IMG/VR virus record: IMGVR_UViG_3300027365_000008
Strand: one strand, 5' to 3'
From: a virus
Lineage: Duplodnaviria > Heunggongvirae > Uroviricota > Caudoviricetes
DNA length: 64,000 nt
Shown here: piece after piece, positions 2,001-56,137 of the stretch
How the letters are laid out: the number at the start of each line of letters is the position of its first letter
Position numbering within the stretch: the first letter of the stretch is position 1
Made by a program: the position numbers and the translations under genes
The notes under the pieces: model-generated
What the model was told of the DNA's origin: nothing
The model's database searches: none
The model's input: the letters and a program-made list of their open reading frames with translations, nothing else

Positions 2001-2461
2001 AACGACCTTCAGTGGATGACATTGTTCATTTTATAAGCAGGTTAATGTTTGATTTCCGATTAGAAAAAGCTAGCAAGACGTTTTCTGGTCTGGCGGATTA
2101 CCTCGGTGAATGCACGAGGAATGGGGAAGTCGATTCGTTTAGACTCACCATTTACGATTGTGATATGGGGTCTGCTGGCATTGTATTTGATCCTACACCC
2201 GCAATCCCAGAGCATTGCAATTTTAATCCGTTCGTTTTTGATGTTGAAGGTGTCCTACAACGGAATCTGACCGAAAAGGTAGGTTTGAGAGTCAAGGAAG
2301 TCTTCGGTGAGTTGGAAGAAGAGATGAGAGTCGAAGCAGTGCAGGGTCATCACCGGGTCATCATGGGCACTCCGCTTTATGAGATGGAAGCCTTTTCAAT
2401 CGCTGAGGTCATTGGTATAATTGACCGTGTTTATGAGATCAATCGCTTACAGGAGTTGTAA
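1997..2461 (+). CDS. hypothetical protein
   Basis: ORF; start overlaps the upstream stop. Confidence 0.45.
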   Translation: MKRPSVDDIVHFISRLMFDFRLEKASKTFSGLADYLGECTRNGEVDSFRLTIYDCDMGSAGIVFDPTPAIPEHCNFNPFVFDVEGVLQRNLTEKVGLRVKEVFGELEEEMRVEAVQGHHRVIMGTPLYEMEAFSIAEVIGIIDRVYEINRLQEL

Positions 2462-2463
2462 TC

Positions 2464-2979
2464 GTGACCTTTATATACACGCCAACAGCGAGAATGATGT
2501 TCCCTGACCGGGTTGAATATAAACCCCCGTCATGGAAAGGTAACATTCCCACAACACCGACTATGGATAATCAGGTCATTTCTGAGTTCTTTAGGGCGTT
2601 CGAGACTCTGTTGGTTGGAAATCTCGATACCATGCCTCAAGCCCGTAGATTGCCTTATGCTGAAAGATTGAAGGAAGAGTGTGAGCGATGGGAACGAATG
2701 ACGAAAGACTTTAACATCGCTGCTATTCATCCTTGTTATGAGGCGAAATTTCGTTCTAATCACAGATCATTAGAAACTGTAACAGCTATCATTTTCACAA
2801 AGACGGGGTGTAAAGGTTCATATCATATTGAAATGGGGTGGTTATTGTATGAGCCTTCATTGGTGCCGATGGTGTTGATGGGTAAAATGTTCCACTGTGA
2901 TATGAAGAAGTTTAGATCGGATTTCATTGATATTATGTATTCTACTTACGAATCTATTCTGTTTAAGGATGCATTATGA
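2464..2979 (+). CDS. hypothetical protein
   Basis: ORF in a packed array. Confidence 0.45.
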   Translation: MTFIYTPTARMMFPDRVEYKPPSWKGNIPTTPTMDNQVISEFFRAFETLLVGNLDTMPQARRLPYAERLKEECERWERMTKDFNIAAIHPCYEAKFRSNHRSLETVTAIIFTKTGCKGSYHIEMGWLLYEPSLVPMVLMGKMFHCDMKKFRSDFIDIMYSTYESILFKDAL

Positions 2980-3521
2980 AAAGGAAAGACTATGCTAAAA
3001 CATTTGTCCATAACGCCGCAACGAATTACATTTGTGTGGTATCCGAACATTCTGAATACCTTTCTCATGAGAGGTTGACCCGACTTCCTACGGAACACTT
3101 GGACTTCCCGTTTAATCGTGACGGACTCTTCAAATCCATTAGAGCCATACTGGATAAGCATCAGGAGCAACCAACGTCACGCATAATTGAGTTGCATAAC
3201 AATAACAAAAGGAAGATAGAAGATTTGTTGTTTCTTGCACAACGCTATCCTAGTGTGGTTATCCACTCAGGCATCGGCCTTTCGAATAAGTTTGGATACG
3301 GCGTTCGGTGTTACTATTTCAAACTTGCTTTTGTTTTTCAGAATGATATGATGTCTGGCGGTCACACGTATTGGTTAGAGGTTGGAACCGATGACCCGTC
3401 TTTGATACACTATGACATGTTGGGGACATATTCGCGTGCCAACAGTGAAAGATTGAAGATCAATCTCCTGAATCCGCTCAAAGAACGCAGCGATGAGGTT
3501 ACATTCTGTCATGAACTCTGA
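2976..3521 (+). CDS. hypothetical protein
   Basis: ORF; start overlaps the upstream stop. Confidence 0.45.
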   Translation: MKRKDYAKTFVHNAATNYICVVSEHSEYLSHERLTRLPTEHLDFPFNRDGLFKSIRAILDKHQEQPTSRIIELHNNNKRKIEDLLFLAQRYPSVVIHSGIGLSNKFGYGVRCYYFKLAFVFQNDMMSGGHTYWLEVGTDDPSLIHYDMLGTYSRANSERLKINLLNPLKERSDEVTFCHEL

Positions 3522-3927
3522 AAACGCAAATCAATCGGTAACACTGGAACAGATTTCAACGTTATGTTACGACAACATTCTCGGGTTGACGAATGAAGAT
3601 TATATAAACACTACTTACTGTGACATTGATGACGTGATAGGCTTTGTGACTAATGAATGTCCGAATGAAGAGAGTTATACAATAAGCGTTTCCTTTTCAG
3701 TTAAACATAATTCTGAATGTGTAGCCGATGTTCGGGTGAGCACTAATGACTTAAACGAGTACGATTACATCACCTTCTTCTTCAAAAATGAGAATCTGTT
3801 GCGTTTATTCGATTTTAAAAACATTGAGGAAGTGCCCGAAGAGTGCATCATCGGTGAGTTCTCTAGGAAAGAGGTGTTTAACCTTCTCCATACCATGACG
3901 GACGCCATTAAACTTCTCGATCTGTAA
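3493..3927 (+). CDS. hypothetical protein
   Basis: ORF in a packed array. Confidence 0.4.
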   Translation: MRLHSVMNSENANQSVTLEQISTLCYDNILGLTNEDYINTTYCDIDDVIGFVTNECPNEESYTISVSFSVKHNSECVADVRVSTNDLNEYDYITFFFKNENLLRLFDFKNIEEVPEECIIGEFSRKEVFNLLHTMTDAIKLLDL

Positions 3928-3945
3928 ACAGGAGATAGACGAAAC

Positions 3946-4605
3946 GTGGAAATCATCAAGACATTCAATGAAGTCGGCAGGTTGTATGATCGAGGGTTAA
4001 TACAGAAGGACGACTCGACATTCGAATGCCCCGTCTGTCACAAGGAATACAAATCGAAAGTGGCAGGCGAAAAGCATGTCGATAAGATGGACTGCTATAA
4101 GATGCAGGATGTCTTTATGGACACCGAATACGAAGCCATGGCTCACGAACTCTATATATCGGTAATAACTAATGAGAACCCCATGGCGAGGACCGGTATC
4201 CGGGTATTCCGCAAGGCCAAGTCGTATGGCCCGTTCCTCAAGTTCATCATCTTCACCAGCTACCATCAGGTGAGCGATAAGGGGCTGTACTACTCGTGGT
4301 TGAACGAGATCGTTGGGTTTCGTTACACCAACAAGATTCTATCCGAAGGTACCAATGAGGGGCGTCTTCGTGAGTATCGTCTTTGGCTACAGCGTCATCC
4401 CCAGTACATCGACAGCCAGACTTTTTTTGAACGCCATGCAGAGGCACTGCAAAATGATCAACAATTCCTGATACGTTCCCTAGAGAAGTCTCATATCGGC
4501 ATTCGCTATCTCATGTCAGCCCACGGCTTCGACTTTGATGGGGTTGTCGATGCCCTTGATCCGGGGTATTATATGAGACTACAGACATTAGTGGAGAAGG
4601 TGTGA
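3946..4605 (+). CDS. hypothetical protein with a C2H2-like zinc-binding motif
   Basis: CPVCHKEYKSKVAGEKHVDKMDC near the N-terminus. Confidence 0.45.
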   Translation: MEIIKTFNEVGRLYDRGLIQKDDSTFECPVCHKEYKSKVAGEKHVDKMDCYKMQDVFMDTEYEAMAHELYISVITNENPMARTGIRVFRKAKSYGPFLKFIIFTSYHQVSDKGLYYSWLNEIVGFRYTNKILSEGTNEGRLREYRLWLQRHPQYIDSQTFFERHAEALQNDQQFLIRSLEKSHIGIRYLMSAHGFDFDGVVDALDPGYYMRLQTLVEKV

Positions 4606-5057
4606 TGAGTCCCGCAAGTGAGGTTCGTGAGATACTGTTACCTTTGCTTCCCGAAGTGGTAACAACCAACATTGTAACTGCGTTGGAACCGTTGGAATCA
4701 TCTTTGGTAACCAAAGTTATCAGGTCCATCGATGAATCGACCATACGAAATCATCTTATAGATGTCTACATTATGGGTCCGACTCGTTCTTATGACGTTC
4801 CCGTAGCAAAGTTCCTATCCCGTGATATTCTCATTGAAATGGGAATCTCAAGGAGGACACAAGTAACACATGTTCCTATAACCAGATTCTCTGAACATGA
4901 GAGAGTGTTTGAGTATTTCCATCGCTTCAAACGAAACATTCCTGTTATCCACACAGACCTTCCATTTCAAGTGACACCAAACATTCCCTTTCATAAGCAT
5001 CACCTTGAAGATATAGCGGAAGATGTGGTTAATATGATTAAGATGATGATGCTGTGA
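4602..5057 (+). CDS. hypothetical protein
   Basis: ORF; start overlaps the upstream stop. Confidence 0.45.
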   Translation: MMSPASEVREILLPLLPEVVTTNIVTALEPLESSLVTKVIRSIDESTIRNHLIDVYIMGPTRSYDVPVAKFLSRDILIEMGISRRTQVTHVPITRFSEHERVFEYFHRFKRNIPVIHTDLPFQVTPNIPFHKHHLEDIAEDVVNMIKMMML

Positions 5058-5064
5058 GGACTTT

Positions 5065-5511
5065 ATGTATTTGGCACGATCAGAACTTATGAGGTTGCTG
5101 AGGGAGGACGCAGAGAAGTCTTTAGGTGCAATGTATAAAGACGTGATGGAAGGGAGGCTTCCATTTTCAATTTGTTTTGCATTTAGACGACTTTCTGAAT
5201 GTGTGGTAAATCCCTCCTATAACAACATGATGGCAGCTATTGATGGGAATGTAGTTGTTGATGCGAACCAAGCACGATGTTACGGAAATGAAAAACGGAT
5301 TACATACCGCTTAAAGGTAGTTGGGATTTACGGTAACTACGGCGGTGAGGTGGTTCTAACTTCTGTTCGTTCCGACCCTATAAAAAGGAGGACTGATCGT
5401 GAATGTGTTTATCGTTGGGTATCTGATAGTGGGTATGTTACGGTAACTTCTGATTCGGTTCAGACGATGGTTATGTCTTTGTGTGATCAATACTTCTTCT
5501 CGCAACTGTAA
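5065..5511 (+). CDS. hypothetical protein (paralog of the next gene)
   Basis: C-terminus YRWVSDSGYVTVTSDSVQTMVMSLCDQYFFSQL resembles the C-terminus of ORF 5590-5955. Confidence 0.45.
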   Translation: MYLARSELMRLLREDAEKSLGAMYKDVMEGRLPFSICFAFRRLSECVVNPSYNNMMAAIDGNVVVDANQARCYGNEKRITYRLKVVGIYGNYGGEVVLTSVRSDPIKRRTDRECVYRWVSDSGYVTVTSDSVQTMVMSLCDQYFFSQL

Positions 5512-19799: not shown

Positions 19800-21746
19800 A
19801 TGATGAGTTCATACGATCTTCAATACCAAGCGGCACTCAATCGTATTCTTCAATATGGATACGATTCTGATGACAGAACCGGTGTCGGAACCCGAAAGAT
19901 GTTCGATGTCAACTTCAATGATGATCTGCGTCATGAAGTGGCTGACGAATATAAACTACCGGCACTAACCATTCGCAAGGTCTTCCCCCGCACGGCATTC
20001 TATGAACTGATGTGGATGCTCAACGGGATTACCAACGTCGATTGGCTATATGAACGAAACATCAACATCTGGAATGGAAACAGCACTCGGGAGTTCCTTG
20101 ATTCTCGTGGTCTGTATCATATCCGTGAAGGGCATATCGGTCGCGGCTATGGCTATCAGATTCGCAACTTCAATGGGGTCGATCAACTCGAAGAACTGTT
20201 CAAGGGACTGTATTACAATCCTAACGGTAGGCGACATCTAATCTCATTCTGGAATCCCGGCGATCTGAAAGAGATGGCTCTGCCTCCATGTTTCGTTGCG
20301 GGAACACAGGTTGCTCTCGCTACAGGGGAATATAAGGCCATCGATTCGATTTCGGTAGGTGATTCGGTCTTAACATCATCCGGCGAATATCATCAGGTCT
20401 ACAATGTGATGAAAACCCCTTATGACGGGGATTTTGTAACTATCAAAGCTACGGGAATTCCAAACACGACATGTACTCCAAACCATCTCTTTCTGGTCAA
20501 GGACAAAGGATATGTTAAGGCTTCTTCCATCAACGTAGGTGACTTTGTGCTTGTTAGAGGGGCAAGCGAACACGAAAATATTCCTTCTTTCGAAATCAAG
20601 AAACATTCTAAAGCGTGGGGGGTAGAATCAGAACGAACGGAAGAAATATTTAGATTGGATTCCGAAGAGAAATGGTTTATGCTTGGGTACTTCGTAGGTA
20701 ATGGGTATGTGACATCTAATCGAGAGGGAGCAAAGCCAGACCGAGGAACGATATCAATACCTCTACATAAAGAAAATGATATAATCAATAGGTTTGGTGG
20801 TGTTATTAATCTCTATGTCAAGAATAGAACACAATCCATGGTGGCTATGGAATTCAGTTCTCGTAGATGGTCGACTGTCTTTAGAGAATTCGGGAGCAAA
20901 GCGCATGGGAAATTCATCCCTACGTGGGTTGAAGAATCTCCTAAGTGGGCAATTGAATCTTTCCTTGAAGGATATATCGCAGCAGATGGATGCATACTAG
21001 GAAATTCGTATTCGATAACGACGGTATCGCCATCATTGGCATACGGGGTTCAACGGTTATTCACTAAAATGGGTAAATCGGCTCGGGTCAGTAAACAAGT
21101 TCGACCAAAGACTACGATCATAGAGGGCAGAATTGTCAACCAAAGAGACACGTATACAATATCCGTAAGGATTGATGAGACAAAACGAAGATCATTCAAT
21201 TTCATCCATAATGAGAGTGGGATGTGGTGTAAGGTGGCTAAAGTTACCCACGAGAAGTCGAATGAACACGATGGGTTTGTGTATAACCTTAGCGTAGATA
21301 CTGATCACACGTACACTGCGAACAACATAGTCAATCATAATTGCCATTTATTGTACAATTTCGTTGTGACCGGGGAATATCTCAATCTGAAGTTCTATCA
21401 GCGCAGTGCCGATATGATCCTCGGGGTTCCGACAAACATCTGTTTTGCGACATTCTTCCTGACACTGGTCGCCAAATCACTTGGTTTCAAGGTCGGCGAA
21501 GTGGCCCATTCGATTGGGGATGCTCATATCTATTCCAATCATATTGAAGTCGCCGAAGAACTCGTTAATCGAGATGCCTTCGATCAACCCGTCTTCTCGA
21601 TGTGGGTTCCCAAATACGATCCGACGCAGGGAATCGAAAGCGTGCTGGCTCCTTATCGTGATGAAAACGCATGGGAAACGTATGTCCACCTGACCTACAA
21701 ATCTCATCCGCCCATTGACAAGTCACGGCTGACCATGGCAGTATAA
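19800..21746 (+). CDS. thyA: thymidylate synthase ThyA interrupted by an in-frame intein
   Basis: ThyA motifs (GYQIRNF, ALPP-C-H..YNFVV, DAHIY); a 351-aa insertion begins directly after ALPP and ends VNHN before the catalytic Cys. Confidence 0.85.
   Translation: MMSSYDLQYQAALNRILQYGYDSDDRTGVGTRKMFDVNFNDDLRHEVADEYKLPALTIRKVFPRTAFYELMWMLNGITNVDWLYERNINIWNGNSTREFLDSRGLYHIREGHIGRGYGYQIRNFNGVDQLEELFKGLYYNPNGRRHLISFWNPGDLKEMALPPCFVAGTQVALATGEYKAIDSISVGDSVLTSSGEYHQVYNVMKTPYDGDFVTIKATGIPNTTCTPNHLFLVKDKGYVKASSINVGDFVLVRGASEHENIPSFEIKKHSKAWGVESERTEEIFRLDSEEKWFMLGYFVGNGYVTSNREGAKPDRGTISIPLHKENDIINRFGGVINLYVKNRTQSMVAMEFSSRRWSTVFREFGSKAHGKFIPTWVEESPKWAIESFLEGYIAADGCILGNSYSITTVSPSLAYGVQRLFTKMGKSARVSKQVRPKTTIIEGRIVNQRDTYTISVRIDETKRRSFNFIHNESGMWCKVAKVTHEKSNEHDGFVYNLSVDTDHTYTANNIVNHNCHLLYNFVVTGEYLNLKFYQRSADMILGVPTNICFATFFLTLVAKSLGFKVGEVAHSIGDAHIYSNHIEVAEELVNRDAFDQPVFSMWVPKYDPTQGIESVLAPYRDENAWETYVHLTYKSHPPIDKSRLTMAV
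20289..21341 (+). other. intein with a LAGLIDADG homing endonuclease domain inside thyA
   Basis: Block A CFVAGTQVAL; two LAGLIDADG-like motifs (LGYFVGNGYV, LEGYIAADGC); C-terminal IVNHN followed by +1 Cys, which is the ThyA catalytic cysteine. Confidence 0.75.
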
Positions 21747-25329: not shown

Positions 25330-28300
25330 ATGTCAACGATTATGGTTACCAAGCGTGATGGAAGCGTGGAAGACTTCAAGGTTGAGAAGGTTCGCAAATG
25401 CATCAACTGGGCATGTGAAGGTCTTCAAGTCAATCCTCTCGCATTGGAATCCCGTTTCAATGAATATCTCCAAACCGAAGTAACCACCAAAGTCATTCAA
25501 GACAGCCTCGTGTTCTGTGCGCGTTCCCTAGCCACGGCGGCTGATTCGGATTTCGTGTTCGTCGCGGGTCGCCTGATGACCATGAACATCTGGAAAGAGA
25601 CGGGCATCTATGAGAAGCCCTTCTATGACGTGCTGACCGATGGCGTGGTTCCCTATGCTATCGATAACACAATTCTTTCGAAATACACCAAAGCCGAGAT
25701 CGAGGAACTGGGTTCCTATATGGTTCAGGAACGTGATCTGAATCATAGCTTTGGTAGCGTTCTGACGGCGATCAACAAGTACCTGCTTCCTAATGAAGCC
25801 ATCCAGCCGATGATCATGGCATCCTCGATGATCATTGCCAGTGTGGAGGATCAGGAGATTCGTGTTGCGAAGGCCAAAGAGTTCTATGATTCTTTGTCAA
25901 ATCGTGAACTTTCTTTGGCAACTCCGTGGTGGGGTAACCTGCGCAGCGATGGCAATATCAGTTCGTGTTTCATCATCAAGCCGAGTGATAGCCTCGAATC
26001 GATCTTCGCTAATGTGACTCGTGCCGCAATGACTTCCAAGGCGGGTGGTGGCCTTGGCGTGTCTATGGCAGCTATTCGTGCCCAAGGCTCTCCGGTCGGT
26101 GGGCGTCCCAACTCGTCCAAAGGCGTATTCAATTGGACGAAGATTTTCAATGATGTTGCGATTGCGGTTGACCAGTGTTTTCATCCTGATACACTAGTCA
26201 CCACTCAGAATGGATTCAAGGCAATCAAAGACATTATTCCCCGCGAGGATCGTGTTCTCACCGACAACGGGAAGTTTAACCGGGTAGAAGAAAAGATCAT
26301 GTATGAGCAAAGCGAGCCGATGTATCGTGTTCGCACAGCACATGATCTTGTCGATACCTTTGTAACCGGGGAACATCCCGTTAAGGCTCTTACCAATCTG
26401 GATACCCTTGAACATGGTTACTTGGATGTGAAGGACTTGGAGATTGGTGATTATCTGGGTCAGAAGATTCCGTCTTATACGATTGAATCGGAGTTGACCC
26501 ATGAAGAACTGTACGCTTATGGTACGTCGCTCATGCTTCCGGGGGCAAATCACATCGATTCTCGATTCCTCCATATTGAACCTGAGAAACAGATGTCGAT
26601 TATCTTTGGTATGATCGATGCCAAAGGATCGGCTGACAATGCAAATGAACTGATCATCGAATCTGCGAATCTGGCTCATGAGATTCGATATCTGCTTCTC
26701 CGTAATGGAATCCCAGTAAAATCAGAATACGTCGGGGGATCATTCAAACTCACTATCCAAGCCACTGGCAAGCTGGCTCTTATGCTTGGTGTCAACGATG
26801 TCGAAGAGGTTGACTGGATCGTTTCGGATGGGTATATTTTCAGCCCCATCACTGAGTTTGAGGACGGGATTGAATACAATTCAGAAGTTTACGATCTGCG
26901 TGTGCAGAGTATTCCGTCTTATCAAACACATGCGTTCATGGCTCACAACGGCGGCAAGCGGGCAGGAGCCATTACCGTCGAACTCCCGATCTGGCACCGT
27001 GACATCGAAGGGTTCCTTGAGATTCAACATGAAACCGGCGATCTGCGCACCAAGTGCTTTGACATCTTTCCGCAAGTCGGGATGCATGATCTGTTCATGA
27101 AAATGGATGCGGCTGATGGTGAAAACGATTGGCATACATTCTGTCCGTATGAAGTGAAACAGGTTCTCGATATCCAACTGGATGAAGTTTACGGCAAGGA
27201 GTTCGAAAAGGCGTACAAGAAGTGTGTCAAAGCCTATGAGAAGGGTGATCTGAAGAACGTCGCCGTGTACAAGACACGTAACCTGATCAAGTCGATGATG
27301 CGTACCCAGTTCGAATCTGGTCTTCCGTATGTGGCCTATCTGGACACCATCAATGATGACAACCCGAATGACCATGAAGGCACGATTCCTTCCGTCAACC
27401 TTTGTGTCGCTCCCGAGACTTTGGTGCTGACTGACAAGGGCAATCTTCCTATCGTAACACTGAAAGATCAGTGGGTTAACGTCTGGAATGGACACGAGTT
27501 TAGCGAGGTCTTGGTTGAAAAGACGGCGGACCATGCTCATCTGCTGCATGTAGAAACGGAAGGCGGTCGTTCACTGGATGCGACGGACTATCACAAATGG
27601 TATCGCGTCGTCGATGGTGAAATGGAAATGGTTCGGACCTTTGAACTGAAACCGGGCGATGAAGTTTGTGTAGTCGATAACTATCCCATTGATCGTATCA
27701 AGTCTATTGATGACCAATACCGGTGGTCTGATGTATACTGTTTCAATGAACCGAAACGGCATCTGGGCGTATTCAATGGCATTATCACCGGGCAATGCAA
27801 TGAGTCATTCAGTGTCGTCAAGCCGGATGTCTATGGTCACTCGTGCAATCTGATCTCTATCGTCGCCGGTCGAGTTAAGGATTACGAACATCTGGAATAT
27901 CTGGCAGGTCTTGCGACTCGAATGCTTGACAATGGGATCGAACTGACCAAAGACCCCATGGACATTGCCGGTGCCCATAATGAGCGTTACCGCACGATTG
28001 GTATTGGCATCCAAGGTCTTCACGATTGGCTTGCCAAGAATCGCAAGATGTACAACGATACTAAATTCATCGGTGAGTTTGCAGAGACGATTCAATTTGG
28101 TGCGGTGAAAGAGAGCATCAAACTAGCTAAAGAACGCGGCGCGTATCCGGCGTACTCGGGTTCTCGGTGGGATACCGGTAAGCAGATTGCCAAGTATCGC
28201 AAGCACAGTCGTCGTGGTCTTGACTGGAATTCTTTGCAAACTGGACTTGATCAATATGGCATCCGCAATAGCCAATTGACTTCTCCGGCACCGAACACAA

Positions 28301-28695
28301 CCACGTCCATTTTCATGGATGCAGGTCCGGGCGTGATGCCGTGCTATGGTGGGTTCTATCTCAAGGACAATACCAATGGGGAGTTCCCGGTTGCCGGTAT
28401 GTATCTGAAAGAGAATCCGTTGTGCTATGCCAAGAATGCGGCTCGCTATGATCATGAAACACTCGTCAATGCGGTTGCCGAAATCCAGAAGTTCACGGAT
28501 GCGGGCATTTCGAGCGAGTATATCTTTGACCACAACAAAGAGGGCTTCAGTGCGAAAGAACTGTATGATCTGATTCATCTGGCATGGCGTAAGAAGACCA
28601 AGGCGGTCTATTACATTCGTAACATCAAGAAAGGTTCTAACCTCGAAGAAGAGGTCGGCATGAGCCAAGCATCATGCGAAGGTTGCGCAAACTAA
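25330..28695 (+). CDS. nrdA: class Ia ribonucleotide reductase alpha subunit NrdA carrying two inteins
   Basis: ATP cone (VTKRDGSVEDF); SSCFII (Cys225 region); GGKRAGAITVELPIWH; NLC-N-E active-site loop; C-terminal CEGC. Two in-frame insertions carry intein blocks. Confidence 0.85.
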   Translation: MSTIMVTKRDGSVEDFKVEKVRKCINWACEGLQVNPLALESRFNEYLQTEVTTKVIQDSLVFCARSLATAADSDFVFVAGRLMTMNIWKETGIYEKPFYDVLTDGVVPYAIDNTILSKYTKAEIEELGSYMVQERDLNHSFGSVLTAINKYLLPNEAIQPMIMASSMIIASVEDQEIRVAKAKEFYDSLSNRELSLATPWWGNLRSDGNISSCFIIKPSDSLESIFANVTRAAMTSKAGGGLGVSMAAIRAQGSPVGGRPNSSKGVFNWTKIFNDVAIAVDQCFHPDTLVTTQNGFKAIKDIIPREDRVLTDNGKFNRVEEKIMYEQSEPMYRVRTAHDLVDTFVTGEHPVKALTNLDTLEHGYLDVKDLEIGDYLGQKIPSYTIESELTHEELYAYGTSLMLPGANHIDSRFLHIEPEKQMSIIFGMIDAKGSADNANELIIESANLAHEIRYLLLRNGIPVKSEYVGGSFKLTIQATGKLALMLGVNDVEEVDWIVSDGYIFSPITEFEDGIEYNSEVYDLRVQSIPSYQTHAFMAHNGGKRAGAITVELPIWHRDIEGFLEIQHETGDLRTKCFDIFPQVGMHDLFMKMDAADGENDWHTFCPYEVKQVLDIQLDEVYGKEFEKAYKKCVKAYEKGDLKNVAVYKTRNLIKSMMRTQFESGLPYVAYLDTINDDNPNDHEGTIPSVNLCVAPETLVLTDKGNLPIVTLKDQWVNVWNGHEFSEVLVEKTADHAHLLHVETEGGRSLDATDYHKWYRVVDGEMEMVRTFELKPGDEVCVVDNYPIDRIKSIDDQYRWSDVYCFNEPKRHLGVFNGIITGQCNESFSVVKPDVYGHSCNLISIVAGRVKDYEHLEYLAGLATRMLDNGIELTKDPMDIAGAHNERYRTIGIGIQGLHDWLAKNRKMYNDTKFIGEFAETIQFGAVKESIKLAKERGAYPAYSGSRWDTGKQIAKYRKHSRRGLDWNSLQTGLDQYGIRNSQLTSPAPNTTTSIFMDAGPGVMPCYGGFYLKDNTNGEFPVAGMYLKENPLCYAKNAARYDHETLVNAVAEIQKFTDAGISSEYIFDHNKEGFSAKELYDLIHLAWRKKTKAVYYIRNIKKGSNLEEEVGMSQASCEGCAN
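26176..26949 (+). other. intein 1 in nrdA (258 aa, LAGLIDADG-type) with a non-canonical +1 residue
   Basis: Block A CFHPDTLV; block B TGEHPVKALT; IIFGMIDAKGS LAGLIDADG-like; block G VYDLRVQ...HAFMAHN; the next extein residue is Gly, not Cys/Ser/Thr. Confidence 0.65.
27403..27795 (+). other. intein 2 in nrdA (131-aa mini-intein) ending in Gln
   Basis: Inserted at NL|C-N-E; block A CVAPETLVLT; block G VYCFNEPKRHLGVFNGIITGQ followed by +1 Cys (the active-site Cys439 equivalent). Confidence 0.65.
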
Positions 28696-43099: not shown

Positions 43100-44137
43100 T
43101 TACAGGGTGTAGAGGTCAGCCAGTTCACTCACCCCACACTCGTACATGCTGTTTGCAGCACGCCTCACATATTGCCGTGACTCAGGCAAGATATCAGGAA
43201 GCAAAGAAAGGATCGAATCTTCGTCCACATAAACATGGGGATTCTCGGCGATATGCTTCCCTGCGAACGTCAACAGTGGCATCCGGCGCTCAACGAGCGG
43301 TCGTTTATCGATACCAATGCGAAGTTTCGACAGGCTATCAAGCATGTCAACCGCATAGAACATCTCACCGGCTTTCTCTTGAACGACGAACCCTTCAACA
43401 ATGAACCCATCGTGATATGCCGTTGGTTCGCCATCGAAAAACTCGAATACCGTTCTGGCGAACTCAATCATATCGCTACGCATAGCGGCATGGCTATGAA
43501 CAGTTCCGTTTTCGAAACGAATCTGAACGACCGGCTCGCCATGAGAATGAGAAGCAAACAAAAACGCCCGTGTCCCTCCTACCACTTCATCAAAGAACCA
43601 TTCCTTCGACTGGGTTGACGCGGGGAATGTTTTATGCTCCGTGCTAGGAGACATCCCTTGCAGGCTGAGACGATTTTTGAAATACTCGGGCCACAGAGTT
43701 TTCACCTCTTCGTCTGTCAGTCCCGTGTCAAACCCATGGGTGATGATGTCAGTGACAAACTGAATCATGTCATACTTATCAGACATGTGCAGTAAAAGCG
43801 CGGTCGAGTGAAGTGTGTGGAAGAACTCATGGATATTGCTCGGATTGCGAGCAAGCACCGCGAAGACCATGAAGAGATCGTCTTCCGTGATGTCGGTAGA
43901 ACGCTCCAACGTCTGGGTAAGTTGTTCATACCGTTCCCGGTCACCATCACTGATTTCGATATTGTCAAGATCAGGAAGGTCATCAAAAAACATATTCACT
44001 TGCGGGGAGTGAAAGACATTGACAAGCCCACGGAACATGTAATCGTCTTGGTATTGCTCTTTAACAAACGCAATCCTGTCTTCAGAGGATTGGATTGCTC
44101 GCAACTCATTGAACACGTCAAGGTAACTGTTTGCCAT
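43100..44137 (-). CDS. hypothetical protein
   Basis: 345-aa ORF; no motif recognised. Confidence 0.45.
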   Translation of the reverse strand: MANSYLDVFNELRAIQSSEDRIAFVKEQYQDDYMFRGLVNVFHSPQVNMFFDDLPDLDNIEISDGDRERYEQLTQTLERSTDITEDDLFMVFAVLARNPSNIHEFFHTLHSTALLLHMSDKYDMIQFVTDIITHGFDTGLTDEEVKTLWPEYFKNRLSLQGMSPSTEHKTFPASTQSKEWFFDEVVGGTRAFLFASHSHGEPVVQIRFENGTVHSHAAMRSDMIEFARTVFEFFDGEPTAYHDGFIVEGFVVQEKAGEMFYAVDMLDSLSKLRIGIDKRPLVERRMPLLTFAGKHIAENPHVYVDEDSILSLLPDILPESRQYVRRAANSMYECGVSELADLYTL

Positions 44138-44240
44138 CGGTCTTTCCTTATACTTCCTGCGTGAATGTCAGAATCATGGTACCCGATGGCATTAAGGGTG
44201 TCAACCAATAAGAAAAGCCGGGGATATCCCCGGCTACCGA

Positions 44241-45128
44241 TCATTTGAATCCAAATAGACTACGCTTCACTTCGTTTTTTCTCGATTGGATATCGAATCC
44301 CATACCCTTGAGGTAGTTGTTAATCGTCTTGTTGGCTTTCTCCCATTGTTTGTCGTAATCGATAATGATGTCATCCATGAAATCGGGAAGTGTCATGGCG
44401 TCAACCGGATATGCGATGTACTTGGACTTCGGATGCTTGATGTACACCACACCGACCTTATCACCGGGCATGATCTGACGATCTGTTTCAGAACACATTG
44501 AATTGTAAAACATCGAGGCGCGAACCGTATAATGAAATCCATGTTGGCTCCCGGTTTGCTCAAAGATGTCAAGACACTTCTTCAGAGTGTTGCACCCTGA
44601 CGGTGATGCAATCTCCTTCAAAGGCGCTTGCTTATATTCCTGTTTGAACTGCTTCACCATGCGACTCAATTGGGCAGCATCCTTCCCGTCGATAATCGCT
44701 TCCACCACTTCAGTCAGGAATTGCTTCAGGAGAACCGGGGTGTTGCTCTTCCTGATCTCAAGCCCCATCAGCTTCAACGAGTCGGTCGGCTTCCCTTCCT
44801 TGTTGACCACATGAGCAGCGTACCGCTTCTTGGTCAGGAAGAACGACTTATCCGATATGATCTCTCGATCTGTCTGAATAACGTCCTTGCGGTCCTCGGG
44901 GACATTGAAGGCATCCATGATGAACTCGGGGAAAAGAGAATTGACATGCTGACCAATCTCATCCGCGATTTCACAGACCTCATTCACATCAGCATCCGCG
45001 TCGAAGAACGGGAGTTTCATGTAACACGAGTCCGTGTCCCCGGCAATCCCCATGTCAGCATGATAGCTTCGATAAACGAATTTATCCCCCTCTTTGAAAA
45101 GGGCTGGAAATTCAATCTTATTGCTCAA
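44241..45128 (-). CDS. family-B DNA polymerase, C-terminal cistron (gp43B-like: palm motif C plus thumb)
   Basis: IAGDTDSCYM (motif C) and KKRYAAHV (KKRY). TTG start preceded by AGGAG with a 6-nt spacer; overlaps the 43A stop by 11 nt. Confidence 0.75.
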   Translation of the reverse strand: MSNKIEFPALFKEGDKFVYRSYHADMGIAGDTDSCYMKLPFFDADADVNEVCEIADEIGQHVNSLFPEFIMDAFNVPEDRKDVIQTDREIISDKSFFLTKKRYAAHVVNKEGKPTDSLKLMGLEIRKSNTPVLLKQFLTEVVEAIIDGKDAAQLSRMVKQFKQEYKQAPLKEIASPSGCNTLKKCLDIFEQTGSQHGFHYTVRASMFYNSMCSETDRQIMPGDKVGVVYIKHPKSKYIAYPVDAMTLPDFMDDIIIDYDKQWEKANKTINNYLKGMGFDIQSRKNEVKRSLFGFK

Positions 45129-46893
45129 GACATTCTCCTGCTTCTTTAATTGTATCGTTAACCATCTTCATCTGTGCTTTCGAAATGATCTGTCCAGTCA
45201 ACGTGATTGACTTACCGAGATCGATGTCAAAGAATCGGAAGTGGTTATTGGTGATGGCACCATAGGCGCTGTTGATGACGATCTTGCTTGCCATCTGGTA
45301 GAGGTCGTACAGGGCTTCTTTTTCCTTGTCTCCAGCCTTAGCGGCTTCCTTCATCATTACTTTGTAATGCTTTCGAGTCTCGAAACCATTGCGAATGACT
45401 CGTGACACGAACCCATCTTTTCCGGTGAAGATGCATCCGTTGGCAGAGATACAGTACCCCTGTTCACGAATGAACTCCATCGCTTCCTTGCCGGTGAAGT
45501 GGAAGTCTTCGCCCTTCAGGTGGCGATAATCCACATGTTGTCCGACCGCTTGCAATACCACTTCATCCTCGCTTTCGGTTACGATCTTGATGTAATCCTG
45601 AAAGCGATTCTTGGCTTGGAAGATGTAGGTTTCTGGACTGATACCAAGCATCATCATCACGGACGGATACAGACTGGTCAAGTCATACGATGCCATCCAT
45701 TCGTGTCGCCCGGTCATCGTCTCATAGACGTAACCCCCTTCCAAGGTTTCCTTGTCATGGTCCTTCTTGTCAGGCACCACCACTAGCTGATTGGGATCAT
45801 GAGTATGGCAATAGTTGACCACCAGTGATTCAATCATCTTTACGGTACCCAGAACGTCAGGGAACCGAATTGTAGCTTTGCGTCCCAACTGAATCAGAAG
45901 TTCGATGATGCGCTTCTTGTCATTCAGCTTCTTGAGCAATCGGGCATCCTGAAGGCTGTATTCAAAGAATGTCTGCGGGTCATTCCGATAGAGTTCACCG
46001 AGGTTATCATCATAATCGGTTTTCTTCTCGCCCAGTTCTTCCTCGGCAATAGCATTCAGGGCATAGGACCGCTTGACTTCATACGTGAACTTCTTATAGA
46101 TGTCCAGCATGTCGAGGTGAAGGCGTCCGACGAGTTCCCATTTGGTGAAGTCATTTCCAAAAGCATCGACCTTCTCAGACGACTTTGCCAAGAAATCATC
46201 ACGACAGAGTAGCGAGGGTGCCGATGCTCCGAAGTGTTTAGTAGCCCGCGCCATGATGTAGGGAATATCGAACTTATCCCCGTTCCAAGCGGTTAGAATA
46301 TCGATATCCTTGATGACATCGGCAAAGCACAATAGAAGATCACGCTCATTGCGCGTGCGATGGATTATGACAGGATATTCGCCATCCGGGTCTTTCAGAG
46401 TGACTTTGTTGAGTTCCGGGGTATCAAACATCAACATATGATATTCGCCTTTAGCGGTATCAAACAGGCTGATGGCGTTGATCTCCCCAAAAGGATTCTC
46501 GGGTCTTGGATAACCTAGTCCGTCCTTCAGGTTGAAATCGACCTCAATATCAAAGAATCCGATGTGAACCGGAACTTCCGTATCAGTGGAATGGTAGGTA
46601 TCAGAAAGATGTTTGTATTCGGGAGCGATGTCCGATTCAAACAGATCGTTGCGATGACTTTTGAAGTCTTTGAACTCCTTGAAGGACTCGAAATCGACTC
46701 GCTTCACCGGGTCACCGAAGATACTGACGGCTTCCGGGGTGGCGGACTTCATGTAGCAGTAATAGGGGGCCGGAACCACATTCGTAAAGAGTTCACCATT
46801 ACGATCTCGTTCCCAGCACCAAACTTCGTCTCGAATACGAGTTGCGTCAATGTACATCAAATCTCCTTCATTCAGATAGAAAAGGGAGGACAC
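45118..46893 (-). CDS. family-B DNA polymerase, N-terminal cistron (gp43A-like: 3'-5' exonuclease plus motifs A and B)
   Basis: Exo I FFDIEV; Exo II WNGDKFDIPY; motif A YDLTSLYPS; motif B KIVINSAYG. Confidence 0.85.
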   Translation of the reverse strand: MSSLFYLNEGDLMYIDATRIRDEVWCWERDRNGELFTNVVPAPYYCYMKSATPEAVSIFGDPVKRVDFESFKEFKDFKSHRNDLFESDIAPEYKHLSDTYHSTDTEVPVHIGFFDIEVDFNLKDGLGYPRPENPFGEINAISLFDTAKGEYHMLMFDTPELNKVTLKDPDGEYPVIIHRTRNERDLLLCFADVIKDIDILTAWNGDKFDIPYIMARATKHFGASAPSLLCRDDFLAKSSEKVDAFGNDFTKWELVGRLHLDMLDIYKKFTYEVKRSYALNAIAEEELGEKKTDYDDNLGELYRNDPQTFFEYSLQDARLLKKLNDKKRIIELLIQLGRKATIRFPDVLGTVKMIESLVVNYCHTHDPNQLVVVPDKKDHDKETLEGGYVYETMTGRHEWMASYDLTSLYPSVMMMLGISPETYIFQAKNRFQDYIKIVTESEDEVVLQAVGQHVDYRHLKGEDFHFTGKEAMEFIREQGYCISANGCIFTGKDGFVSRVIRNGFETRKHYKVMMKEAAKAGDKEKEALYDLYQMASKIVINSAYGAITNNHFRFFDIDLGKSITLTGQIISKAQMKMVNDTIKEAGECLEQ

Positions 46894-46930
46894 TTGTCCT
46901 CCCCCATATTACCACTTAACTATTCAGCTT

Positions 46931-47221
46931 TCACTCTTCCGGGCGCTGACCTTTCGCATTGCGAGCGGCGGTTAGCAGTTCTTCATTGAACTCGATGATT
47001 GATTCGTTCTTCTCATAGGTCTTGGTAGCAGTCTGATTGAAACGCTCCTTGACCAGTGCATTGAATTGAGAAGACTTCAGCTTCAGTTCCTCTTTGGCCC
47101 GTTCGGCAACGTCCTTACGAAACTGCTTCTCGGAATCTTCACGGATCAGGCTGTCCACGGCTTCCTCGATCATGTCGTTCAGCTTGACGAGTTCGGGCTG
47201 GGTATACTGGAAATCGCTCAT
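46931..47221 (-). CDS. hypothetical small acidic protein
   Basis: ORF. Confidence 0.4.
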   Translation of the reverse strand: MSDFQYTQPELVKLNDMIEEAVDSLIREDSEKQFRKDVAERAKEELKLKSSQFNALVKERFNQTATKTYEKNESIIEFNEELLTAARNAKGQRPEE

Positions 47222-48072: not shown

Positions 48073-48783
48073 TTAACCCCCGCTGTAGGACGAAGAACGG
48101 GCTACACTGGAAGTCCCACGGAAAGGATTCGAACGTGTCGTTACCTTACCCGTCGAACTTGATACATTGATACGCGAAGCCGTCTTGTTGGATTTGAAAG
48201 CACCAATTGCCCTAGAATTGGAAGAGAAATACGTGCTGTTGCCATAGGACTTCCGCTTCTTTCGATTATCGGTGTAGTACATCTGTTTATATCGGTCGCG
48301 GGTATGGCTGTTGCCGGTTACATAGCCAGCGAGTGCCCCAATGCCCCCGGCCAGAAGCATGGATGTCATGATGTCATTTGACATGTCCTCATGCCGCTGT
48401 TCGCCAGCAGAATCCCGATACACTACCCTCGTCTTACAATCAGAATCAATGATCTTCACATCCACGATGTTAGGATTCTGTTGCATGAGATCATTGCGCA
48501 TCTTATCGAGATCGATGCCCAGACGTGCAAACATGGCATCGCTGGCAGTTTCGATGAAATACCCAGCCTTTTCATACATGAAGGCCAGCGCATTGTCCAT
48601 TGCGGCAGAATAATCGTCCACTTCTTCCGCATCAAATTCTGCGATTTTCAGTGGCGACTCGGATAGGAAGTTAGGAACCAAAACTTCCAACTCGTTCCGA
48701 TTGTGTTGATAGATACCCCATGACAGGGTATCTTCAAACATGTTTTCGAGTGAAAGCTGATACGGAACTTCTTTGATCTTCAC
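48073..48783 (-). CDS. hypothetical protein with one TM helix and an S/T-rich tail
   Basis: IMTSMLLAGGIGALAGYVT helix. Confidence 0.4.
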   Translation of the reverse strand: MKIKEVPYQLSLENMFEDTLSWGIYQHNRNELEVLVPNFLSESPLKIAEFDAEEVDDYSAAMDNALAFMYEKAGYFIETASDAMFARLGIDLDKMRNDLMQQNPNIVDVKIIDSDCKTRVVYRDSAGEQRHEDMSNDIMTSMLLAGGIGALAGYVTGNSHTRDRYKQMYYTDNRKKRKSYGNSTYFSSNSRAIGAFKSNKTASRINVSSSTGKVTTRSNPFRGTSSVARSSSYSGG

Positions 48784-49784
48784 TGGCTATCTCCATTCTG
48801 AATCAATCCTCGCCCTTCGGTCCCTGTTTTGAAGTTCCCACAATCCACATCACCAAGATCGGTGTGTACCAGAATGTCACCGGTCTTGCGGATTACAAAG
48901 TTTCCCTTGCCGATAACATCTTTCAGGCGTTCACGCAACTTCTTCTCACTCAGTGAGTTATCATAAGCATCTTTACCAATGAATCGAAGTGCGTCAGTCT
49001 CATCACCCGTGTGTTCTTCCGTATCGGTTCCTTTGAACACAATATCAAACGGATCATATTCCTCTTCCGACATTTCACTGATCGACACTGGAATCAGGTT
49101 TCCAGTTGAATCATTGACGAGGAAGGCTTTTCCTTCATAGACCACCACGTTGTGAAGTTGGGGAGTCATGTTGTCCCGCTTCATGAAGGTGTTCCAATCG
49201 ATAGCCTTGCCGCGTTCGATAACATCCCCATCGGTGAGCCAGACTTCGGTATACTTGATCTTGTCCATCTCGTATTCATTCAGAATGCTACCGAACACTT
49301 CCTGAATGTAAGCATCGAAGCGACGCTTGTTGTGAACGAGCAGATCGTTGTGCTGGTCAGTCTTACCACCATAGCCGTAGAACTCACGATGACCCATGAA
49401 CTCAGTATGCGGCTGCGTCACACGCACTTCACCAACCGCCCACAGCATGAACCCGGCTGACGCCACTTGGCTACAGGCGACGGTGATGGTGTGCTTGAAC
49501 ATCTTCATGATGCTTGCCAGTTCGAGCAGCATATCTACCCGACCGCCACTGGAATTGATATAGAAGATGGCACTGGTGTACTTCTCAGCCAATTGATACA
49601 GTTCTACCAGTTCATTTGTATTCTCTTGCGGGCTACTGAAATTGCCGCGTAGATGAACCTCCACCCGTTGCTTCTGTTCATCGACCTTCACCGTCATGAA
49701 CTTGGCGAACTTAGCCGCCAGCGGGAAACCACCATCATAGTTGGTTGCGTTGAAGTCTTGAACTACCGGATTGTGTTGGATCAT
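48780..49784 (-). CDS. ClpP-family (S14) serine protease-like protein with a long C-terminal extension
   Basis: YINSSGGRV and TVACSQVASAGFMLWAVG match ClpP's YINSPGG and GQAASMG motifs. Confidence 0.6.
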   Translation of the reverse strand: MIQHNPVVQDFNATNYDGGFPLAAKFAKFMTVKVDEQKQRVEVHLRGNFSSPQENTNELVELYQLAEKYTSAIFYINSSGGRVDMLLELASIMKMFKHTITVACSQVASAGFMLWAVGEVRVTQPHTEFMGHREFYGYGGKTDQHNDLLVHNKRRFDAYIQEVFGSILNEYEMDKIKYTEVWLTDGDVIERGKAIDWNTFMKRDNMTPQLHNVVVYEGKAFLVNDSTGNLIPVSISEMSEEEYDPFDIVFKGTDTEEHTGDETDALRFIGKDAYDNSLSEKKLRERLKDVIGKGNFVIRKTGDILVHTDLGDVDCGNFKTGTEGRGLIQNGDSQ

Positions 49785-54715: not shown

Positions 54716-56137
54716 CTACCCTACATCGCGCATGTAGATCGTCTTGCAGTCTTCCAGTTCAATATCTGAAGCGCCCTCGGATGTAATCACCAGCAGGTTT
54801 CGACATTCCATCGGAAGCGCCGATTCCAGTGATTGGTGGGGGATATAGCCATCCGTGAAAATGATGAGTGCGTTGATAGGCTCACCATCATCCAGTTTCT
54901 CGCCAGCATATTCAGCCAACGGGGCCATGTCCGTTCCACCCCCGCCAATCCAATCGAGACTGACGTTACTGAAGTCGTCACCGTCCTCGGAGTTGTAGAT
55001 ACCGATAACGTGATAGCTGGTATCACATGTCACCAGATGCACGGTCCATGACTCAAATTGATCGAGAATACCCTTAAGTTCGGCAGCGGCTTCCTTGAGT
55101 TCACGTTCGCTCATCGAACCTGACGTGTCAACACCCCACACCAGTTCAATCTTGCTCCCTGTCAAACTCGGGAACACCACACCACCTTCACCCGTTCGAC
55201 GGGACAGACGATTGTAGGTCGGGCGTTCCTTAGTGGAGGCAACGATGTTTTCGTTAAGTTCATCTTTCCAGTTAACGCGGGGCTTCGCTAAGTCTTGGAA
55301 AGAACGCACCATGTCGCCTTCATGCTCACCAATACTTTTTGTGGCACTGGCGTTCGCAACAGCAGCCGCAGCTTCCTGACGGTTCATGCCCTTTTCACCG
55401 TCGCTTTGCTCACGCCCCGAAACGCTATCCATGGGCATCTGACCAGCCGGAGCGCCACCCGCGCTTCCTTGGCCCTTCGATGGCTTGTCCTTTCCTTGTT
55501 GCCCGGCTTGACCTTCACCGTCATCAGGGCGCTGACCGCCGCCGTGGGCTTCGCACGCTTTCTGCGCGTCACCATCGTTCTCTTCAAGCAACAGATGGTA
55601 AATCTCATCAGATGACATGCCCACGAAGCGTTCTTGATATAGAACGAACTCGGGCCGTTCTACATAAAGACGAAATCGCTCATCATGCGAAACACCATCG
55701 TTCTCAGTCTTGTACGTACCTGAACAGAACAAATTGATGTTGTAATCCGTGGCGATGTTCCACAATTCAGGATTGTAACCGGATTCCATCTGACGCCCGG
55801 AGTGTTCCTGAAAGATATGAAGAATCTCATGGAGCAACACGAACGCCCGCTGTTCGTTGTTTTCCAAACGATTCATCCAGAATACCGGGTTAATGAAGAT
55901 CATGTTTTTGCCATTGACCGGCATCGCGCCAGCCGTGGGCAGATCGGGCGACCAGAAATACACACACTGAAACATCAGATGCGCCATGAGCGGGGATGCA
56001 ATCGCAATGCTCGCTCGTGCTTCCGAAAAGGTTTCCATCCATTCAGGCTGAATGTCCTTGTCTTTGATTAGAGTCGGCATCCGGGTCAGCATGACCTCGC
56101 CGATGCCATCCTCTTTCTTATCAGTCTGTGTGGTCAT
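54716..56137 (-). CDS. VWA-domain protein with an N-terminal DUF2201-like HExxH domain (CobT-like partner of a MoxR ATPase)
   Basis: LLHEILHIFQEH; MIDAS motif WGVDTSGSMS; G/Q/A-rich linker. Confidence 0.65.
   Translation of the reverse strand: MTTQTDKKEDGIGEVMLTRMPTLIKDKDIQPEWMETFSEARASIAIASPLMAHLMFQCVYFWSPDLPTAGAMPVNGKNMIFINPVFWMNRLENNEQRAFVLLHEILHIFQEHSGRQMESGYNPELWNIATDYNINLFCSGTYKTENDGVSHDERFRLYVERPEFVLYQERFVGMSSDEIYHLLLEENDGDAQKACEAHGGGQRPDDGEGQAGQQGKDKPSKGQGSAGGAPAGQMPMDSVSGREQSDGEKGMNRQEAAAAVANASATKSIGEHEGDMVRSFQDLAKPRVNWKDELNENIVASTKERPTYNRLSRRTGEGGVVFPSLTGSKIELVWGVDTSGSMSERELKEAAAELKGILDQFESWTVHLVTCDTSYHVIGIYNSEDGDDFSNVSLDWIGGGGTDMAPLAEYAGEKLDDGEPINALIIFTDGYIPHQSLESALPMECRNLLVITSEGASDIELEDCKTIYMRDVG

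Follow-up and report, generated by a model that had tools for sequence, protein, structure and literature searches.

A gp43-type family-B DNA polymerase probably built from the products of two adjacent genes in a clade of T4-like phages

The window analyzed here is a 64,000-nucleotide (nt) stretch of the virus record IMGVR_UViG_3300027365_000008. As shown in Table 1, its minus strand carries two adjacent genes, a large one (A) and a small one (B), between which the parts of a family-B DNA polymerase (PolB) are divided. Gene A encodes the N-terminal domain and the 3'-5' exonuclease (Exo I-III), together with the first half of the palm, where motif A lies, and the fingers, which hold motif B. 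Gene B encodes the remaining half of the palm, where motif C and KKRY lie, together with the thumb, a C-terminal tail and, at the N-terminus, a beta-hairpin extension. The motifs that mark a polymerase of the gp43/RB69 type were all found, with Exo I-III and motifs A and B in A, and motif C and KKRY in B. In the Pfam search, A matched DNA_pol_B_exo1 (2.5e-21) and positions 27-202 of the 453-position DNA_pol_B profile, and B matched positions 225-412 of the latter. Against the full-length polymerase family of the PHROGs database, phrog_262 (856 positions), A covered positions 10-563 and B covered positions 570-846. The first-pass annotation had described a family-B polymerase whose gene is interrupted between motifs B and C and forms two adjacent cistrons, which is borne out by the open reading frames (ORFs), the motifs and the Pfam matches.

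Table 1. Coordinates of the features of the split polymerase locus (positions in the window).
Feature	Position	Strand	Basis
Gene A, large polymerase subunit ("43A-like"), 579 amino acids (aa) + TAA	45118..46857	-	gene call P0037, Pfam, motifs
Gene B, small polymerase subunit ("43B-like"), 295 aa + TGA	44241..45128	-	Pfam, motifs
A/B overlap, 11 nt, from TTG of B to TAA of A	45118..45128	-	read from sequence
Exo I, FDIEV, A residues 102-106	46540..46554	-	motif read; invariant in seven A+B pairs
Exo II, WNGDKFDIPY, A residues 191-200	46258..46287	-	motif read; invariant in seven pairs
Exo III, YSLQDARL, A residues 300-307	45937..45960	-	motif read; invariant in seven pairs
Motif A, DLTSLYPS, A residues 392-399, first catalytic Asp	45661..45684	-	motif read; RB69 alignment
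Motif B, KIVINSAYG, A residues 525-533	45259..45285	-	motif read; alignment
Clade-specific N-terminal extension of B, IEFPALFKEGDKFVYRSY	45063..45116	-	alignment; model
Motif C, GDTDS, B residues 30-34, second set of catalytic Asp	45027..45041	-	motif read
KKRY, B residues 100-103	44820..44831	-	motif read; alignment
C-terminal LFGFK, putative sliding-clamp-binding tail	44244..44258	-	aligns with LFDMFD tail of 44RR gp43
G+C-rich hairpin then T-run, upstream of A; loop holds GTG 46893	46882..46905	-	hairpin scan
Shine-Dalgarno AAGGAG, 5-nt spacer to ATG 46857	46863..46868	-	read from sequence
Shine-Dalgarno AGGAG for B, within last codons of A, 6-nt spacer to TTG	45135..45139	-	sequence
Intrinsic-terminator-like hairpin, 8 pairs (7 G-C) then T-run, directly after B stop	44216..44235	-	

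Gene A ends with a TAA at 45120-45118, and B, which lies in the +1 frame relative to A, begins with a TTG at 45128-45126 and ends with a TGA at 44243-44241. Before the TTG, the B frame stays open over a further 39 nt, and from the upstream in-frame TGA to this TTG there is no further ATG, GTG or TTG in that frame. The small product that had been described initially, 295 aa long with motif C (GDTDS) and KKRY, started by a TTG after AGGAG and overlapping A by 11 nt, was found as claimed. At the A/B junction, no terminator-like site was found, nor any promoter-like site that rose above background, and a strong terminator-like hairpin (Table 1) follows the stop codon of B. The two genes appear to be co-transcribed, and we infer that their translation is coupled because of the overlap and the Shine-Dalgarno (SD) sequence embedded in A. 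The overlap, the SD sequence inside A, and the similar layout in relatives are compatible with co-transcription and with coupled or closely linked initiation.

The start of gene A requires one correction. The large product had been given as 591 aa, with Exo I-III, motifs A and B and a TAA stop; these features are all present, and the likely length is 579 aa. The longer product depends on the GTG at 46893. This codon lies in the loop of the G+C-rich hairpin upstream of A, an SD sequence precedes the ATG at 46857, the database gene call (P0037) is 579 aa long, and the homologues of A start with M(S)YID. For these reasons the ATG at 46857 is taken as the likely start.

The position of the break was determined by alignment with the polymerases of T4 and RB69. 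RB69 gp43 aligns to A up to about residues 607-613 and to B from about residues 700-880, and T4 gp43 aligns to B from residue 612. These limits place the break in the palm before the motif C hairpin, in a surface loop at about RB69 residue 610, which follows the helix after motif B and precedes DTDS by about 30 residues. Because the break precedes DTDS, the motif A Asp is on one chain and the motif C Asp is on the other.

The two chains together are longer at this point than an uninterrupted one. In every unsplit relative examined, exactly 58 residues separate the Lys of motif B from the residue before GDTDS. In the split clade, the tail of A extends a median of 51 residues past the motif B Lys and the head of B comprises 29-43 residues before GDTDS, which gives a sum of approximately 83-90. 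The difference indicates that 25-35 residues were added at the break, almost all at the N-terminus of B. In the window, A stops about 8 residues beyond the homologous helix and B carries about 25 extra residues; in the alignment, this N-terminal extension is absent from the nearest unsplit relatives. In the unsplit polymerase of Xanthomonas phage Xoo-sp13 (L016), about 17 residues are inserted into this palm loop, between motifs B and C, which indicates that the loop tolerates insertions.

The structure was predicted with AlphaFold2 by fusing A and B as an artificial single chain and using a block alignment of 137 split and unsplit homologues. The mean predicted local distance difference test (pLDDT) score was 93.7 and the predicted template modeling (pTM) score was 0.89. 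The sole soft stretch near the join was the tail of A at 571-580, where the pLDDT was 72. The added residues formed a beta-hairpin (584-592 and 595-603) just before the motif C hairpin (606-610 and 613-617), which it adjoins in the fold. In a Foldseek comparison, the fused model matched RB69 gp43 over its full length (about 920-970 columns) with a template modeling (TM) score of 0.80. The model indicates that A and B together correspond to one complete gp43-type enzyme. At the C-terminus, B ends with RSLFGFK at the place where the 44RR protein ends with LFDMFDI, and L-F-G is invariant among the relatives; by analogy with what is known of T4 and RB69 gp43, LFGFK is a putative clamp binder.

The nearest sequenced phages by protein comparison are the Alishewanella phages vB_AspM_Slicko01 and Slickus01 (OQ508956, OQ508957), at 39-45% amino-acid identity. 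The Slicko01 polymerase is annotated as two coding sequences (CDS), 2491..4194 and 4194..5129, which share one base in TGATG, and its break is at the same alignment position as that in the window. The two Alishewanella phages resemble the window in split position, clade and neighborhood, with subunits of 567 and 311 aa. At the junction, however, Slicko01 has a 1-nt overlap, B in the +2 frame and an ATG start, whereas the window has an 11-nt overlap, the +1 frame and a TTG start. We found no paper on the Slicko01-type arrangement, which is documented by the GenBank annotation alone (both CDS are named "DNA polymerase"), and the one paper in the literature searched that names these phages makes no mention of the polymerase.

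The same arrangement was found widely in the protein databases. The search with B among 5.8 billion proteins gave 35 clusters at 41-63% identity, nearly all of them stand-alone and about 300 aa long. The search with A gave about 90 clusters at 37-63% identity, every one of 550-585 aa, and below 36% identity it returned full-length proteins only (847-905 aa). A scan of 1.84 billion representatives gave about 45 clusters, at 50% identity, of B-type representatives. The closest neighbor of the window, at 63% identity, is likewise split. At the DNA level, megablast of the locus against 50,697 phage records gave no match, which points to a lineage without a close sequenced relative at that level, and a single-protein pattern scan of IMG/VR returned one weak, truncated locus only. 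An exact look-up located the 579-aa product but not the 295-aa one.

Ten loci were compared directly, namely the window, Slicko01 and eight fetched relatives. In all ten, A comes directly before B and the break is at the same alignment position. The junctions vary, with overlaps of 11, 8, 8, 4, 1, 1 and 1 nt and gaps of 2, 10 and 919 nt; five loci have B in the +1 frame and five have it in the +2 frame. An SD-like motif is present within the 3' end of A at every one of the ten junctions. In a neighbor-joining tree of 83 split and 31 unsplit or other sequences, the split and unsplit sequences were separated in 98 of 100 bootstraps, and the window and Slicko01/Slickus01 fell inside the split clade. 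The mean distance within this clade is about 1 substitution per site. When seven A+B pairs were aligned, Exo I-III, motifs A, B and C, KKRY and the L-F-G tail were invariant. The form shared by the clade, the window included, consists of an A protein of about 550-585 aa that ends after the post-motif-B helix and a B protein of about 295-325 aa with a hairpin extension before DTDS. These comparisons indicate that the split arose long ago and has been inherited throughout a large clade of uncultured T4-like phages.

Several candidates for further split polymerases were rejected on inspection. The phages RsoM2USA and Xoo-sp13, which the match tables suggested as two-CDS cases, both have unsplit polymerases. 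The GenBank record OLB35, which has two CDS, is marked "UNVERIFIED" and is broken at another place. B-like representatives of about 320 aa at low identity were considered as independent splits; the one inspected, P0213 (locus L018), is unsplit and cut by the contig end, with an open upstream frame, and these representatives were not counted.

The variation among the junctions bears on the simplest alternative, that the gene is in reality a single ORF of about 875 codons which a sequencing or assembly error has divided. The loss or gain of one base near 45118-45135 would join the two frames, given the 39 nt of open B frame upstream of the TTG, and OLB35 shows such an artefactual two-CDS polymerase. 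However, the same split recurs in about 90 clusters and in two cultured, finished phage genomes, some junctions are gaps with stop codons, and both relative frames occur. The SD sequence and the start of B are also conserved across the junctions, and a second assembly, the Logan assembly built from run SRR5818261, agrees with the window at 100% identity over 6,740 nt, junction included. The initial concern about a frameshift error at 45118-45135 is dispelled, since the split is kept across the clade with variable junction geometry. Conservation of both the split and the start signals of B excludes a sequencing frameshift to near certainty, and the two-CDS polymerases of this clade should not be "repaired" as frameshifts in annotation.

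The junction sequence also raises the question of programmed +1 frameshifting, which would give a fused polymerase beside or instead of the two subunits. The local order is an SD-like AGGAG followed by CUU GAG CAA UAA, with B in the +1 frame. The AGGAG-N5-CUU-GAG arrangement resembles the layout of prfB, and a slip from CUU to UUG would bring the ribosome into the B frame at precisely the first codon of B. In prfB frameshifting, however, a 3-nt spacing is critical, and the spacing in the window differs from it; furthermore, CUU is not followed by a stop or rare codon at which the ribosome would pause. Neither a conserved slippery site nor a constant frame relation was found across the ten junctions. 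In relatives with the +2 frame, or with gaps of 2, 10 or 919 nt that contain stops, the geometry is different, and several of them could not produce a fusion at all. Because the frames differ and some of the gaps contain stops, a conserved programmed frameshift is excluded, and frameshifting as the explanation for the window is considered very improbable.

A disrupted frame in an essential gene can also signal decay, in which case the polymerase gene would be a pseudogene and replication would be carried out by another polymerase. The catalytic motifs are nevertheless intact, and they are invariant in spite of about 1 substitution per site in the clade. The two halves always co-occur and are always adjacent, and the viable cultured phages Slicko01 and Slickus01 have this arrangement. 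The invariance of the motifs in seven pairs and the presence of the split in cultured phages exclude pseudogenization, to which we assign only a negligible chance.

Inteins are common in this clade, and it was considered whether the two halves are rejoined by a split intein through protein trans-splicing, as in Nanoarchaeum equitans PolB. Inteins were found in motif C of some B subunits of the clade, in Exo II of one A subunit, in the thyA of the window and probably in its nrdA. The large subunit P0105 (842 aa) has an intein in Exo II (WNG|CLTPDH...CHN|CNFDIPYIM) and keeps the usual split end. Eight small subunits (P0162, P0163, P0168, P0169, P0172, P0192, P0195 and P0199) have inteins in motif C (AGD|S...VHN|TDS), either mini-inteins of about 180 aa or LAGLIDADG-bearing ones of about 400 aa, with Ser1 and Thr+1. 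These small subunits still begin at the usual split point, and the split and the motif C inteins are therefore separate events. At the window junction itself, neither an intein-N (about 100 aa) nor an intein-C (about 35 aa) would fit, Pfam gave no Hint or intein match in A or B, the context of a C/S/T +1 nucleophile is absent, and the extra residues of B fold as a beta-hairpin in the model. Rejoining of the halves by a split intein is thus exceedingly unlikely.

Further inteins were noted away from this junction. Four proteins of about 314-327 aa from other PolB lineages (P0204, P0217, P0224 and P0247) have an intein-C-like start (...ILLHN|S) followed by polymerase after DTD; they may be split-intein PolB proteins or contiguous inteins cut by a contig end. 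In the window, the thymidylate synthase ORF (19800..21746, plus strand, 648 aa) matches ThyA at residues 1-167 and 514-639, and the insert of about 350 aa between them has Intein_splicing, Hint and LAGLIDADG homing endonuclease domains, which identify an intein-containing thyA. The nrdA gene for the large subunit of ribonucleotide reductase (25330..28695, plus strand, 1,121 aa) matches ribonucleotide reductase at residues 1-282 and 531-1120; it has a weak Intein_splicing match below the Pfam cut-off and probably carries one or more inteins.

The first-pass annotation had pointed to the split 43A/43B genes of Aeromonas phages as a precedent, which is appropriate as far as the two-cistron PolB is concerned. 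In T4-like Aeromonas phages, the products of the split gp43 are active as a complex (PMC2988022), and fingertip breaks are described for phages 133 (Acinetobacter), 44RR, 31, 25 and 65 (PMC3061061). In some 43A/43B members, a free-standing GIY-YIG/seg endonuclease lies between the cistrons (PMC2988022; PMC3061061), an arrangement that resembles one relative of the window, locus L007. Like the window, these phages make a T4-type PolB from two adjacent cistrons; they belong to a different phage lineage. In the sequence of 44RR2.8t, which was examined here, 43A (498 aa) and 43B (391 aa) are separated by a 49-nt untranslated spacer, whereas A and B overlap by 11 nt. The 44RR break is at alignment column 513 and that of the window at column 614, so that the former is about 100 columns upstream. 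It lies in the fingertip, between the two finger helices and before motif B, whereas the break in the window comes after motif B; motif B is accordingly in 43B of 44RR and in A of the window. The two PHROGs built on the 43A/43B split give the same picture, as A covers all of phrog_2062 and the first 90 positions of phrog_1918, crossing the fingertip split, and B begins at position 97 of phrog_1918. The 43A/43B genes are therefore an analogue and not a homologue of the split described here.

A palm split is also known in the archaeon Methanothermobacter thermautotrophicus, where the activity of PolB1/PolB2 reportedly needs both subunits, as Kelman et al. are said to have found in 1999. That enzyme is like the window in its palm split, the larger subunit being about 68 kDa and the smaller one C-terminal. 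It differs in that the genes, being 85 kb apart, cannot be coupled, whereas those of the window overlap. The Methanothermobacter break is about 83 residues after the Pfu position 467/468 (PMC3061061), and faulty intein excision has been proposed as its origin (PMC4104785). By arithmetic from this published position, it is probably at or just after motif C, in a different loop from that of the window.

In phage RM378, a break between the N-terminal and palm domains has been predicted (PMC3061061). An engineered, bicistronic Pfu polymerase split by an overlapping stop/start (AUGA) shows coupled translation, is fully active and behaves like the intact enzyme (PMC3061061), which indicates that PolB tolerates chain breaks; this split is artificial, lies in a fingers helix and has no added docking element, unlike that of the window. 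Nanoarchaeum equitans PolB and the metagenomic "fractured genes" use split inteins (PMC4104785; PMC2677866), and in fractured polymerase genes a homing endonuclease gene is sometimes found between the halves (PMC2677866, Dassa et al. 2009). Their halves carry parts of a split intein and are ligated to one chain, whereas the window junction has no intein parts.

As to the origin of the break, the initial statement that no mobile element intervenes in the window holds, as A and B overlap, and no free-standing homing endonuclease gene of the kind found in gene 43 of phage 25 or in nrdA of Aeh1 was found between them. In L007, the 919-nt gap between A and B holds a gene for a 287-aa GIY-YIG (LEM-3-like) endonuclease (2084..2947), antisense and exactly at the junction, and the large polymerase gene has a G+C-rich hairpin after its stop codon. 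The earlier reading of the window junction as the clean scar of a mobile element thus gains circumstantial support from a relative that keeps such a gene at this place, with the reservation that the endonuclease may postdate the split. Insertion of a mobile element into the palm loop, with later loss, is suggested as the most likely origin.

Taken together, the results indicate that A and B very probably encode a genuine two-subunit, gp43-type replicative family-B DNA polymerase. We infer that the two products form a heterodimer and that this heterodimer is active. In the mechanism proposed here, A would supply the proofreading exonuclease and the N-terminal domain, along with the fingers (motif B) and the first half of the palm, which bears the motif A Asp. 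B would contribute the other half of the palm (DTDS and KKRY) and the thumb, flanked by the short beta-hairpin and the probable clamp-binding tail. The active site would be put together across the subunit interface. Both genes would be carried on one transcript, and B would be initiated from the SD sequence inside the end of A, where ribosomes ending A would probably re-initiate on B or open its site. The subunits would then be produced in roughly equimolar amounts and could dock co-translationally. The split itself would have been created by a mobile element entering the palm loop, which was later lost in most lineages, the window included.

Several points weigh against this account. The evidence for an enzyme of A and B consists of sequence comparison and a predicted fold, and the fused model, built as one chain, is silent on the association of two chains. 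B starts with TTG, a codon that initiates weakly. Folding of the junction RNA did not exceed that of shuffled sequence in stability (z = −0.38), and a model in which a hairpin gates the coupling was dropped for this reason. The Logan assembly and the Joint Genome Institute (JGI) assembly may share the same reads. The mobile-element origin draws on one relative, L007, where an endonuclease could equally have entered after the gene had been split; the same ambiguity in the order of insertion has been noted for phage 25 (PMC2988022).

The surroundings of the polymerase genes were also inspected. Immediately upstream lies a gene for a T4 DsbA-like transcriptional regulator (46931..47221, minus strand), as in most relatives, and further upstream one for a ClpP-like protease (48780..49784, minus strand); the synteny of the regulator and the protease is conserved across the clade. 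Directly downstream, a 345-aa ORF (43100..44137, minus strand) has no Pfam or PHROG match and is preceded by a promoter-like site (TTGACA-17-TACCAT, 44204-44176). In the corresponding position, or a few genes downstream, Slicko01 and the loci L007 and L010 have a DNA ligase. A 473-aa ORF (54716..56137, minus strand) matches phrog_1314, named "HNH endonuclease", and its Pfam matches are DUF2201 metallopeptidase-like and VWA-like; the phrog_1314 name looks misleading for this ORF.

A T4-like phage PolB in two cistrons was already known, and few natural split family-B polymerases have been described, namely the fingertip breaks in five T4-like phages, the palm break of the Methanobacteriales, the predicted break of RM378, and the intein-joined enzyme of Nanoarchaeum. 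On the sequences compared here, the break point is new and clade-defining. What is added is a stably inherited break through which the two sets of catalytic carboxylates come to lie on different chains. It is rather unlikely, in our estimate, that the split is a maintained adaptation, with a clade-specific docking hairpin, and not a neutral scar. If it were an adaptation, nucleotide selectivity could be altered, as when Pfu was split; one possibility is that the small subunit would be exchangeable or separately regulated, and the motif C region would perhaps be shielded from the homing elements that target the polymerase gene in this clade. For polymerase engineering, the clade offers a natural, evolution-tested split site with a built-in docking hairpin. 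The arrangement is directly testable, as this large and diverse phage clade includes the cultured members Slicko01 and Slickus01. The gathering of a junction endonuclease and of inteins in Exo II and motif C in one gene may be useful for understanding how mobile elements fracture essential genes.

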